Shown: positions 45,647 to 64,000 of the stretch, one piece after another | Layout of the letters: every line of letters begins with the position of its first letter | Numbering within the stretch: the first letter of the stretch is position 1 | Source of the DNA: Peptococcia bacterium | Lineage (GTDB): Bacteria > Bacillota > Peptococcia > DRI-13 > DTU073 | Direction of reading: 5' to 3' | Assembly (NCBI GenBank): GCA_050951565.1 | Contig: JBMNJH010000012.1 | Location: 63,141-127,140, forward strand | DNA: 64,000 nt | Translations under genes and position numbers: made by a program | Notes under the pieces: model-generated | Told to the model about the DNA's origin: nothing | The model's input: the letters and a program-made list of their open reading frames with translations, nothing else | The model's database searches: none

Positions 45647-48600
45647 ATGATTAAGAATAAAAGTCTTGTTTTCCTCTTAATTCTTTCGCTTTTATTAATA
45701 TCGTTTGGGATCTATTTTGCCATCCATTCATTTAACAGCACCAAAAGTGTTTTTATGCAGGATGGCTATGTTTTGGAGTGCCAAGATGATCTGGCTGGCG
45801 CGGAAGGAAAAAGCATTCAGTACCATTTTCGAGGGGGAACGACTTACCGGGCCAGGTTCCCTCAAAAAATTGTTTTTAATGACACCCAAAACCAGCGGAT
45901 TATCACTGCTGAGCATGGTTTCCTTCATTATGCCGACGGTTCGTTTGGGGCCTTCAAAAACGGGGTTGTATTGAACCTTTCCGCTTTAAATGCTGACTTA
46001 ATTAATTATTACAATGTTTCTCCTGATTCCATCATGCAAAACAACGGGAGTAGTTATTCCCTTGACCATATGGGGACACCGATCAACTTTAAACAGTTCC
46101 TGTGGAAATTAAACCAGGACAAATATCTGCTGGCTGCCGATACGATCAAGCTGCATTTTTTAGAGGATGATGTCCGGGAATTTAAAGACTATCTCGAAGT
46201 AAGCTACATTGATGAAAATGTGGTGCAACTGGCCAATAACGAGGCTGTTCTCCAGACCATTGCCACGGATTGTTTTGTGGAACTGAACGACGGAGTGACC
46301 ATCAATTTTAGCGAAAAGACGATTAAGCAACACGATGTTACGAAATTAACCCTGGCCCAGATGGTTGTGGATGCCGAAGAAAATATTGAGGTGACCCCTT
46401 TAAAAATGAAGGAGGTCGCTGCAATTAAGCTGCCCAAAATTACCACCGTCGACGGTGAAGACGGGGAAGAAGGGGAAACAGGAGAGCCCGGCGAACCCGG
46501 CGAACCGGGCGAGGTTGGCGAAACCGGTGAAACCGGCGAAACCGGAGAACAGGGCCAAACCGGGAGTAAAGGAAGGGGCGGCAGTAAGGGGAAAGACGGC
46601 GCTGCCGGTGAGACCGTCGGCGTCGGAGGAGGAGATGGAGACTCCGTTGATCAGGTTAAATTACCTGTTTTTGAATTGTCCGAATGGAAGGTAACCGCTT
46701 CCAGCGCCAGCGGCGTTGTCTTTATTAAGGACGACGATAATTTGCTGGTGGGAGACTCCGTTAACCTGAAGCTGGTGGAAACCGGCACCAACAAAGTGGT
46801 GTACGGTCCCGAGCCGTATTCGGGTCTGATTTTCAATTTCCATTTGGACGGGCTTAATTCCGGTACCGAGTACCGTTTGGTCATCAGTGCGGATTATGCC
46901 GTAAATAACAGGGAATATACCAGGGATTTCATTAATAAGGTGTTTGTGGCGGATACCCTCGGCTTATCTGTGGAAAAGGAATACGCCGCCGAGACGGAAC
47001 TTGCTTTTGTGGTGATGAAGCAAGCTTCTTCCACTGTGAGTATCGCCAGTTTACAGCTTTATAACGAAGATGGGACTTCGCACAGCGTGGAAAATGTTAA
47101 TTTCGCCGGCGATCGGCAAACGGTCCTATTTAGAAACCTGACGCCCAATACCAGGTATCTGGTTCAGCTTACCGACGTGAAAAGCAGTGACGGTATTGAA
47201 ATGGCTACTTATGGGCAAAGGCAGGAATACAGCACTTTAAAGACGCCGCCCACGATTGGCGATCCCAAAGTAATCGTCAACAAAAAGAACGGTTCCTTTG
47301 AGATGCAGGTTGGCGCTGTGACGGACCTCCACCATGGCATCACCAAATTCCGTTATGAGATCTATGCTGCGCCGGTTGTTACCGGTGTCACACCGGTGAA
47401 AACGCTGAATTCCGCCACTAAGGGGAGCGTGGCCGCTTTTGTGGACAACTTGCTCTTGCGGCGGAACGAGGATTATCAGGTGAAAGTGGTTGCCGAGTTC
47501 TTTGATAATGAAAAGACGGTAGAGTTCGAAAGCAACCTGTCGGATACATTCCGCATGGAAGGGGTCAGCTTCCCGACGGTGAGATTCGAGGCCGAAGAAA
47601 TCACTTTCGAGCGGGTCCGGGGAATTATCTACATTGACGCCCAGTCGGCAGAACTGGTGGTTAATTCAAACAAACCGCTGACCATCATGTACGAAAACTC
47701 CCTCAACGTAGCTAAAACCCTGCCGCCGATTACCGATCTGGCCCAGTTCGCGGAGACCGCTACTACTTATGCCATCCCCTTTGTGGTCAATAACTTACGA
47801 CAGAACGATACATATGTGGTCTCCCTGCATGGTTGCGTGGACCTGCTTGACGGGAATCCGGAAGAACAAGTGGTCATCGGAAGCTTTATCTTCGACACCC
47901 CGTCCAGCAATCCCTTACAAGCCGTCTTTATTGAGAATTCCACTGACGGCAGTTCGGCGTTCGATGTTGATTTCCAGTTACAGAGCCCGCCCATGATCAA
48001 CAGCGAACTGGAAGCCAACACCTTGTCCCATATGACCCTGAAGTTGTATTCCGGGGTTACGACCGAAGAAAGAAACCTGGTTGCCACCGTGCCTTACCAT
48101 GACACTAATCCGGAACCGTACGAGAGCGTCCTGAGAGAAACCTTCTATGACCAGATGGCCAAGATTACGGAAACAACCTTCGGGCTGCGTCCCGAACAGT
48201 TGGAAAACCCTGTTTATACCATTCAGGTGACCGGGGCATCTGACTATACGGATTATCAAAACGAAATCACGATTATTAACAATATAATTACGGTTAACAG
48301 ATCCGAATCTGCGCCGCCGTTACCGCCGGTGAATGACGCTTTTGAAGTGATCACGATTATTAACGGCAATGCCGAACAATTTGGCGTGGAAAAAGTTGAT
48401 GGATTGAGAGATGACACGATCATTGGGTATGCCGTGAAGGCGAAGTTTGACAGTGATCTGGCCAATAACTTTACCTATACCATGTATTCACCGGCCGAAT
48501 ACCATCAATACAACAGTGATCCCGACATTACCGCAGGCGCGCAGCAGGTTGGATCTGCCTATACCTTGCCGGTTGTCGGCGGCAAGATTCCGGAACTGGT

Positions 48601-62495: not shown

Positions 62496-64000
62496 GTGCT
62501 GAATGATATTGATGTGACGTCAGGGCCGCTTCTTGGGTCGGCTGACTCTTTTAACGGGGAGTTGGATTTTCAGGGTTATACGCTGCATAATAGCAAGGGT
62601 ACTTACTTATTTCGCATTTGGGTAAAAACGGGTATCATTAAAAATATGGTACTTGATGTGACGATCCCGTATACTGATCCGATGCGTTACCGGGCTTTAT
62701 TGCTTATGTTTCCAGGGGACGGATGGAGAATATTATGGTGAACGTAAAAGGTTGTACCGAGTTATCTGCATAATGACTGGGGACTTTTTTGTCCATAACA
62801 GTGCGACCGGCGTGATTGAAAACTTTGTGGTCAATCTGGAAAGTCCGCTTTATGTTTGGAGAAATTTGGGTGTGTACGCATATAACAGCGGGATGGTACG
62901 AAACGGTTATGTGTATGGTAGCGATATTGAACTGCCTGATATTGAGGTGGATGGGGGCTATACTGCCTCTAATTTTGGCGGGATTGTGGGCAGAAACGAA
63001 ACAGCCGGACGGGTGGAAAATGTCTTTTCTCTGGTCAATATCCGTACCGGCACACTGGTCACGCCTAGCAAGAACAATTTTGGCATGATTGTGCGGCGTA
63101 ACAATGGGACAGTGAAGGGTGCTTTTACCACGGGAGAGGTCTATTTCGGAGGGGCAAATGACCTGCGCTATGGCCCGGCGGTAGGCCGTCAGGGCGGGAT
63201 GCTGCAGACTGATGCTTACTACATTTCGGAAAGACTCTACCTATACGAATACATATAACGCGAAAGTAAGCAAGGAAACGCTCTATGATCCATTGTGGCA
63301 CAAGGCCGTCCTGGGGGATATGTTTGACACGGAGACACTGGTCTTAATGGGTTATTACCCCCAATTAAAGCTGCCCGATTGTATGCCGGCCCAGCCTTAT
63401 CTGCCCTTGCCGGAGTTAAATGTTGCCGATGCGGTGGATCTGGCCAGCGTAATGGTCGAAGAGCAGTACGAGGATTACGCTATCGCCCGGTTTACCTTTA
63501 ATAACCCCTATGGCTATACGATTAAGAGCGTGGGGGTCGAATACCTCAATGCCACCATTATCCCGGACAGCCAGGAGGATAAAGATGGACTCACCCGTGT
63601 GCTGGTGCGCTTGGATAACCCCACTAAGTTTTATTCCAGCTACAATGTCCTTTATTTCGGATACGGTGTTTCCGCTAGCAGTCCAACGACTTTGCGCCAC
63701 TATCAAAAAGGAGAACGTCTGGTCAATGCAGAGTTTTTTAAGCCAATTCGCACAATTGAAGATTGGGCATCTATAGAGGATAGCTTAGAGCAGAACTATC
63801 GTTTGAAAGAGGATTTGGATTTTAATAATACTCCGCCGCAATTAATCCGCATTGGGGAAAATGATGCTAATCAATTTACCGGCAAACTGGATGGCGGTAT
63901 TTATGACAAAAACATGAAATGTATTGGGATGCATACTATTCGTAATCTTGATTTATCCATTGGCTTAGGAGGAGTGATCACTAATTTAAAAGGTTCGGTT
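62496..64000 (+). pseudogene. GLUG-motif surface protein split over three consecutive frames (62496-62741 frame 0, 62752-63258 frame +1, 63257 to window end frame +2): frameshifted pseudogene, phase-variable gene or sequencing error; 3'-partial
   Basis: Each downstream frame is open well before the upstream frame's stop. GLUG-like motif ASNFGGIVGRNETAGRVENVFSLVNI. The last segment runs off the window end, so the ORF track omits it. Confidence 0.45.

Follow-up and report, generated by a model that had tools for sequence, protein, structure and literature searches.

A putative F-type-derived ATPase, predicted to be uncoupled from ion transport, is encoded with giant surface proteins in walled monoderm bacteria

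We analysed a 64,000-nucleotide stretch of the genome of a Peptococcia bacterium (GenBank assembly GCA_050951565.1, contig JBMNJH010000012.1, positions 63,141 to 127,140; hereafter the window). Between 45.6 and 64 kb, its + strand carries eleven tightly packed genes that make up one operon, in the order S1-S2-c-b-delta-alpha-gamma-beta-epsilon-like-M1-M2-S3, in which S1, S2 and S3 are large surface proteins, M1 and M2 are membrane proteins and the remaining six resemble subunits of an F-type ATPase (Table 1). We interpret this locus, from its sequence, as encoding a dedicated F-type-derived ATPase that would hydrolyse ATP, would be uncoupled from ion transport and would be mechanically coupled to surface fibrils, a reading to which we assign a probability of roughly 55%. 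Every gene that an initial annotation of the window had listed here is present in place and on the + strand. The translational coupling that it had proposed is borne out by overlaps at the b/alpha (ATGA, 54063-54066), alpha/gamma (55385/55388) and gamma/beta (56173/56176) junctions, and intergenic gaps elsewhere in the operon are 14-109 nt where the genes do not overlap.

The arrangement is far from peculiar to one genome. Clustered at 90%, the relatives of the gamma-like protein number 841. When one genome per species was scanned, a relative turned up in at least 208 species, 80 of which were kept as species-level loci. Gene presence was counted in the 48 species-level loci with full 10-kb flanks, the window's own species being excluded. 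The set c, b-delta, alpha, gamma, beta, epsilon and M2 is present and colinear in 48/48, S1 and S3 are each found in 47/48, S2 and M1 each in 46/48, and all eleven genes occur together in 42/48. Synteny holds in at least 80 species-level loci, and such an arrangement lies far beyond chance. The linkage between ATPase and surface genes, for which the relatives' loci were checked for an ATPase standing alone, thus stands; the arrangement, of which the initial annotation was aware of no equivalent in a walled Firmicute, is no rarity of this genome and forms a large family. Host labels span Lachnospiraceae (including Butyrivibrio, Roseburia, Agathobacter and the cultured Chakrabartyella piscis BP5G), Oscillospiraceae, Family XIII and Peptococcia/Peptococcaceae, the last being closest to the window among the loci kept (87% gamma identity). 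In the complete genome of C. piscis BP5G (NZ_CP092441.1), the cluster lies near 645-666 kb. Outside Bacillota, the cluster is found in the cultured Bifidobacterium colobi LC6 (L044) and in three metagenome-assembled genomes (MAGs) of Coriobacteriales (L021, L027 and L036). These actinobacterial occurrences, one in a cultured isolate and three in independent MAGs, suggest horizontal transfer among monoderms. Two records labelled as diderm, 'Thermoguttaceae' (L054) and 'Ignavibacteriales' (L081), carry a c subunit nearly identical to that of Lachnospiraceae/Bacillota loci; either mis-binning or gene transfer may lie behind these records. An identical copy of the window's own beta protein occurs on each of 21 contigs read, and 89 blocks of the collection are indexed as holding it. 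One MAG, Lachnospiraceae bacterium Tb.RUG.141, holds two copies of the whole cluster on two contigs (L030 and L062).

The most telling departure from an ion-coupled enzyme concerns the c-like proteolipid, which passes the Pfam cutoff for its family (33.9 bits against 24). We aligned 66 distinct orthologues with the reference c subunits of E. coli, Bacillus PS3 and Ilyobacter tartaricus. The position in the second transmembrane (TM) helix that holds the ion-binding carboxylate of the references (D61 in E. coli, Glu in PS3 and I. tartaricus) is M, S, A, T, V or I in 66/66 orthologues, as the initial annotation had noted for the window's protein, and no other ionisable residue lies in the membrane core of any of the 66. 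Hidden Markov models (HMMs) of canonical a, b and delta subunits gave no match, either in the whole 64-kb window translated in six frames or in the 86 loci, which extend for as much as 10 kb to either side of the gamma-like gene. With both the a subunit and the c carboxylate lost, the enzyme is predicted not to be ion-coupled, and the initial view that this is not the housekeeping atp operon is upheld by the family-wide absence of the carboxylate and of any a subunit nearby. The c subunit is at the same time the best-conserved protein of the cluster, with a median identity of 72% (66% for beta, 62% for alpha), and its cytoplasmic loop, GRNPETK, the part that contacts gamma and epsilon, is invariant. 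The family's c proteins also carry, at their extracellular C-terminus, a conserved F(F/Y)NP motif that none of the three reference c subunits has, and that is a candidate site for docking at the ring's outer face. The gene encodes 81 aa and has its own strong AGGAGG ribosome-binding site. A longer open reading frame (ORF) of 197 aa (GTG start at 52685, to 53278), which overlaps the end of S2 and holds the c gene in frame, is an artefact; one public annotation, that of contig L002, calls a 140-aa version of it.

The delta subunit, which the initial annotation had likewise listed as missing, appears to be present within the b-like protein, so that its statement about the a and delta genes holds for a alone. 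The protein starts with an N-out TM segment that runs on into a long helix (residues 2-73); a disordered linker leads to a helical domain resembling OSCP (99-201), and a beta domain follows (208-252). In a Foldseek search with an AlphaFold2 model built from 13 sequences (predicted local distance difference test score, pLDDT, 75), the top 34 PDB matches were all delta, OSCP or b-delta chains, with probabilities up to 0.90 and E values of 1e-3 to 0.15. An hhalign comparison of the 36-member b-like family with four canonical deltas gave E 5.8e-5, and aligned the C-terminal motif D..iCEGiqI...nklYDYSI with the C-terminal signature of Bacillus delta. The relationship is seen by these two methods alone, the family's sequence profile returning only coiled-coil noise from the PDB, such as haemagglutinin HA2. 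The individual scores are marginal to modest and the methods agree; we therefore take the protein to be a compact b-delta fusion, as judged from the model and the alignments. With delta fused to b, the operon keeps the canonical order atpE, atpF-H (fused), atpA, atpG, atpD, atpC.

The F1 head retains what hydrolysis would demand. Alpha and beta match PF00006 with E values of 3e-73 and 3e-62, and gamma matches PF00231 (81.5 bits against a cutoff of 39.9, E 1e-22). Among NCBIfam models, the three most resemble atpA, atpD and atpG, yet all score under the curated cutoffs. The best match of alpha is atpA PRK13343, at 427 bits against 554 over profile positions 9-437 of 507, and beta reaches 459.8 bits against 462.85 for atpD TIGR01039. 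Identity to the subunits of Bacillus thuringiensis, Limosilactobacillus oris, Sphingomonas and E. coli is 34-40% for alpha and 41-43% for beta. These canonical references were taken from ordinary atp operons matched by a distant blastn of alpha-gamma-beta against plasmids, a search that gave only short matches, all of them to such operons. As had been stated initially, the catalytic motifs are kept: alpha has a Walker A motif (GDKKTGKT) and the arginine-finger motif SVSR, and beta has a Walker A motif (with Lys K153), the catalytic Glu in GERSREG, LFIDN, the DELSEED-like loop EELSEEN and YPAVD; Walker B is likewise present. Judged by these motifs, the head should be able to hydrolyse ATP. The companion claim that both subunits are shortened applies to alpha, which keeps its N-terminal segment in the profile alignment and lacks about 60-70 C-terminal residues; beta is of full length, covering atpD profile positions 2-452 of 462.

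The epsilon-like protein comprises the beta-sandwich part alone, without the C-terminal helical hairpin. None of its 32 family members has a Pfam match. The top five matches of the family profile in the PDB are all F1 epsilon subunits (E 0.3-1.1), an HMM built from four canonical epsilon sequences detects 10 of the orthologues (E 1e-4 to 1e-2), and the gene lies directly 3' of beta, the position of atpC. The assignment to epsilon is weak but supported.

Besides the subunit-like and surface proteins, the operon encodes two membrane proteins, M1 and M2, neither of which has a Pfam or NCBIfam match or a hit in PDB profile searches. M1 is predicted, from a reading of its sequence by the positive-inside rule, to have five TM helices with the N-terminus outside and the C-terminus inside. 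Its conservation is poor except at R78, midway along TM2 and nearly always R or K, and at N125, an Asn conserved in TM4. M1 was considered as a divergent subunit a and rejected, as PF00119 matched 0/35 members and hhalign gave a probability of 0.1% against subunit a. R78 does recall the essential Arg of subunit a, though the partner c has no carboxylate here. M2 consists of an N-in TM helix (15-41) followed by an extracellular all-beta domain of about 24 short strands, and an exhaustive search yielded 426 representatives at 50% clustering. This helix-plus-domain module stands bare in M2 and recurs at the N-termini of all three surface proteins. Compared with M2 by hhalign, the N-terminal part of S1 gave a probability of 96.2% (E 2.8e-9), that of S2 92% (E 6e-7) and that of S3 87% (E about 4e-6), and the S1 and S2 N-termini matched each other at 95.8%. 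By profile comparison, S1, S2 and S3, each over about its first 230 residues, are thus homologous to M2, and the four share a juxtamembrane beta domain for which there is no close solved structure. Some other genomes encode M1 and M2 as a single fused protein (P0143, of 406 aa, P0145, P0156 and others of about 400-465 aa), an arrangement that fits the predicted topologies of M1 (C-in) and M2 (N-in).

The M2 module also appears in further contexts. P0163 apparently holds two M2-like domains in tandem, and P0153 (1693 aa) continues from an M2 module into a GLUG-rich giant. A second M2 paralogue sits between M2 and S3 in L015, L016, L019, L025 and L062, and in 17 loci the M2 HMM picks up a pair of M2-type ORFs.

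The surface proteins follow a common plan, each beginning with a TM helix and the M2-like domain and continuing through a thin, low-complexity linker into beta-rich domains. A direct reading of their sequences places the membrane anchor at this N-terminal helix, and no LPXTG motif was seen at their C-termini. In S1, the M2-like domain (about 8-236) is followed by a collagen-like GXY run (270-325; PF01391, E 1.4e-8) and a long chain of FN3/Ig-like beta domains, the fn3 matches being weak; the GXY run is found in 28/52 S1 orthologues. S2 has a (GGX)n run (residues 244-303; about 20 perfect GGX triplets at 51856-52035) that occurs at the same position in 48/61 S2 orthologues, and then a beta-rich region and an acidic Ser/Glu/Pro tail. 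Rather than a disordered linker, this run might form a polyglycine-II or collagen-like rod. In S3, a Pro/Glu-rich linker (about 230-290) leads to FN3-like domains and a GLUG/beta-helix-like region (Glug, E 1.3e-8 in L001).

S3 had been recorded as two genes, a 1086-aa protein and a GLUG-motif protein; it is a single gene, intact at 3204-3210 aa in five same-species contigs (L001, L002, L003, L005 and L006). In the window, the frame is intact to codon 1086, where it meets a stop at 62486-62488, followed by frame changes near 62805 and 63230, and it is also broken in L004. An exact look-up of the window's 1086-aa fragment returned no record. The six same-species contigs, L001-L006, are 99.6-99.9% identical to the window over S1-M2, and S3 itself shows 0-2 mismatches per 300 nt over its first 2.7 kb (to about 61.9 kb). 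Beyond that point (61900-64000) lies a sharply bounded hypervariable segment with 10-20% divergence and dozens of 1-2 nt indels. The disruption could reflect a real pseudogene, antigenic or phase variation, recombination of repeat cassettes or a consensus artefact of mixed strains. A diversity-generating retroelement target was rejected on account of the many indels among the differences, no search for a reverse transcriptase having been made.

Taken together, we envision a machine in which gamma, the epsilon-like protein and a ring of carboxylate-less c subunits would form the rotor, while the single b-delta fusion would hold alpha3beta3 as the stator. The polytopic M1, with M2, may be the membrane partner in place of the proton-conducting a subunit. 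ATP hydrolysis would turn or strain the gamma/epsilon/c-ring unit against b-delta and M1, and the work would reach the fibrils via M1 and M2-type modules lying on the membrane's outer face. On the output side, the M2-type domain would form the membrane-proximal end of S1, S2 and S3, from which a thin rod-like linker, collagen GXY, (GGX)n or Pro/Glu-rich, would cross the peptidoglycan and carry the long beta-domain chains beyond it. These wall-spanning fibrils may be moved, tensioned or remodelled, for adhesion or motility. That the parts assemble physically, that the rotor turns, which way energy flows and what the machine delivers are all inferred from the gene products as read here. A bolder form of this proposal posits a new class of monoderm ATP-driven rotary nanomachine, independent of the mycoplasma machines, in which an ion turbine has become a mechanical drive and torque passes via the M2 domain to trimeric, collagen-like, wall-spanning shafts bearing giant adhesive fibrils. 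We regard it as rather unlikely; if true, bacteria would have three kinds of rotary surface organelle, the other two being the flagellum and the rotary motor of T9SS and gliding.

Several observations weigh against mechanical actuation. The proposal draws on sequence and models, and every contact that it posits, be it of the c-ring, M1, M2 or an S protein, is putative. Sequence conservation is lacking in the TM helices of M2 and of the S proteins, which gives no indication of specific intramembrane contacts with the c-ring, and if M1 and M2 were stator parts with the S proteins docked on them, the rotor would have no evident load. The GXY and (GGX)n linkers are common in S1 and S2 orthologues, not universal. 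The homology of epsilon is weak, and the disruption of S3 means that the machine may be incomplete in this genome, or the assembly imperfect.

The alternative that fares best is an export or assembly device, in which the F1-like head would energise the insertion, translocation, folding or wall-threading of S1-S3, with M1 and M2 as a gate or platform and the M2-like domain as a docking module. The analogue would be the F1-related FliI/FliH/FliJ ATPase complex of type III secretion. We consider this possible, though not favoured. It would account for an ATPase encoded with three large type II membrane proteins in nearly every locus, for the M2-like module with which all three begin and for the matches of alpha and beta to FliI/SctN models, which are much weaker than those to atpA/atpD. 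The ATPases of type III secretion systems (T3SS) are homo-hexamers without a c-ring, and the extreme conservation of c together with its invariant rotor-contact loop is hard to explain for a soluble-type export ATPase. We rank actuation above export because such an enzyme would not need so conserved a c subunit. Moreover, the ordinary N-terminal signal-anchor helices of S1-S3 should suffice for Sec/YidC targeting, and M2 carries the module yet has no passenger.

An ordinary or alternative ion-translocating F1Fo, with its a subunit elsewhere or replaced by M1, a non-canonical ion site and surface genes that are mere neighbours, is in our view very improbable. The gene order is that of atpEF(H)AGDC, beta nearly reaches the atpD cutoff, and M1 has the topology expected of a subunit a as well as a conserved intramembrane Arg/Lys. 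These likenesses are outweighed by the lack of any ionisable residue in the membrane core of c, the failure to find an a subunit in the window or the 86 loci, the dissimilarity of M1 to subunit a and the scores of alpha, beta and gamma, which fall under the cutoffs for atpA/atpD/atpG and for the N-ATPase. Co-conservation of the surface genes across phyla is also unlike the behaviour of chance neighbours, one MAG has two copies of the cluster, and the cluster is present in Bifidobacterium, a genus that is known to carry a canonical atp operon. Decay of a duplicated atp operon among surface-protein genes, which might be read into the interrupted S3 of the window and L004, the truncated alpha and the epsilon without its C-terminal helices, is scarcely credible for genes with all catalytic motifs and their translational coupling preserved, median identities of 62-72% in c, beta and alpha across classes and phyla, synteny in at least 80 species and a beta protein unchanged on 21 contigs.

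Table 1. Coordinates of the operon and its candidate promoter in the window.
Feature	Position	Strand	Description
Candidate operon promoter	45511..45539	+	TAGACA-17-TATAAT, sigma-70-like, 11/12 consensus match, ~110 nt upstream of S1
S1	45647..51100	+	1817 aa, predicted type II membrane protein
S2	51127..52923	+	598 aa, predicted type II membrane protein
c-like proteolipid	53033..53278	+	81 aa, two TM helices, PF00137
b-delta fusion (putative)	53296..54066	+	256 aa from TTG 53296; alternative 258 aa from GTG 53290
alpha-like	54063..55388	+	441 aa from ATG 54063; alternative 443 aa from 54057; PF00006
gamma-like central shaft	55385..56176	+	263 aa, PF00231
beta-like catalytic subunit	56173..57528	+	451 aa, PF00006
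epsilon-like	57562..57903	+	113 aa; start codon uncertain, conserved core from about residue 26
M1	57878..58462	+	194 aa, polytopic membrane protein
M2	58485..59213	+	242 aa, one TM helix and extracellular all-beta domain
S3	59228..64000	+	giant surface protein, continues beyond the window end

The promoter match that heads Table 1 is the best in the region and likely drives the operon. Upstream of S1, on the opposite strand, lie its neighbour purL, a copper P-type ATPase and a LysR regulator, and the remainder of the window holds ordinary chromosomal genes, including those for pyruvate carboxylase and HtpG. With housekeeping genes such as these as neighbours, a mobile element was rejected as the carrier of the locus. 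Amid the housekeeping genes, positions 13760-16675 encode a 971-aa protein with a PQQ/BamB-like beta-propeller match.

Until now, F-type ATPases turned to uses other than ion-coupled ATP synthesis have been regarded as peculiar to the wall-less mycoplasmas. The locus described here would be a separate and much wider case, in hundreds of walled gut-anaerobe species that include abundant Lachnospiraceae and Oscillospiraceae and a Bifidobacterium, in which the c-ring and stator appear to be kept, ion coupling appears to be lost and giant surface fibrils are genetically linked. It brings at least two new protein families, M1 and the M2 domain without a close solved fold, together with a naturally carboxylate-free c. 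Cultured hosts could make it a tractable system for the roles of F-type rotors other than as turbines, for the passage of force or signal across a thick wall and for powered adhesion or surface movement of gut commensals. No description of such a cluster outside Mollicutes was found in the literature, the coverage of which was incomplete, so that an earlier description is possible.

Set beside the canonical F1Fo (atpIBEFHAGDC), the window shares the order c-b-(delta)-alpha-gamma-beta-epsilon, the catalytic motifs, gamma and c proteins that pass Pfam and a delta-like domain. Unlike it, the window's locus is without a and AtpI, the c carboxylate, the C-terminal 60-70 residues of alpha and the regulatory helices of epsilon; its b and delta are fused and shortened, and M1, M2 and S1-S3 are added to the operon. 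The N-ATPase (atpDCQRBEFAG) is similar in being a second F-type operon beside the housekeeping enzyme, patchily spread, but differs in its a subunit, its Na+-binding c, AtpQ, AtpR and gene order. Against the N-ATPase models (TIGR03305, TIGR03324, TIGR03323 and TIGR03322), the window's proteins stay far under the cutoffs, at 419/752 bits for beta, 342/750 for alpha, 26/282 for gamma and 16/131 for c. The b-delta of mycobacteria likewise joins a TM and b-type helix to delta/OSCP, and its chains 7jg5_d and 9vkp_d are among the top Foldseek matches. It is, however, 430-445 aa long, compared with 256 aa in the window, where there is no second b' gene, and no sequence similarity between the two is detectable outside the delta C-terminal motif. 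Membership in the T3SS ATPases is not supported either, as the best scores against FliI/SctN models are 177-210 bits, compared with cutoffs of 380-620, and alpha and beta are separate paralogues. The LPXTG-type collagen-like adhesins (Scl1/Scl2, Lcl) match only the GXY run of S1, at 34 bits against a cutoff of 325, which does not place the surface proteins among them.

The closest functional parallels lie in the mycoplasmas. Their Type 3 F1-like X0 ATPase (MSC_0618/0619) is an extra set of alpha, beta, gamma and epsilon without an a subunit, encoded beside membrane proteins whose fold is not known and tied functionally to surface proteins (PMC3369863, PMC12994834), and it is required for the MIB-MIP antibody-cleavage system (PMC12994834). 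The Type 3 cluster comprises seven genes, with a 12-TM protein, a 19-kDa protein, an 87-kDa membrane protein and no c or b-delta (PMC12994834), so that content and order differ from those of the window. Its partner is MIB-MIP, whereas the partners of the present family are giant fibrils and its hosts are walled monoderms. The NCBIfam models for Type 3 score alpha at 304.1 bits against 520 (MSC_0619) and beta at 402.6 against 570 (MSC_0618), short of membership in both cases. In Mycoplasma mobile, the Type 2 gliding motor is an F1-derived ATPase that serves the gliding surface machinery (PMC11864180, PMC8406192). The resemblance is one of concept, an F1-derived ATPase (MMOB1660/1670) together with three very large membrane-anchored surface proteins (Gli123, Gli349 and Gli521). 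Scores against the glide models are 381.8 bits with a cutoff of 600 (MMOB1660) and 384.8 with a cutoff of 850 (MMOB1670), again outside the family. When the window's beta was compared with the PDB, canonical betas scored 334-382 bits and the beta of the M. mobile G1-ATPase scored 312, the weakest of 58 beta matches. The gliding beta has a long N-terminal extension, of which the 451-aa beta of the window has none. The gliding ATPase forms cytoplasmic chains of dimers without a c-ring and, as far as is known, is encoded apart from the gli genes; the present family keeps c, with everything in one operon. The mycoplasma analogy drawn by the initial annotation is therefore apt for an F-type ATPase recruited to surface machinery, and does not extend to specific kinship with Type 2 or Type 3, given the scores below cutoff and the last place of the G1 beta. 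Because the comparisons with the N-ATPase and with Types 2 and 3 all failed, the accessory genes differ and c and b-delta are kept, the family looks, from its sequences, like an independent recruitment of an F-type ATPase, far more widespread than the mycoplasma types.

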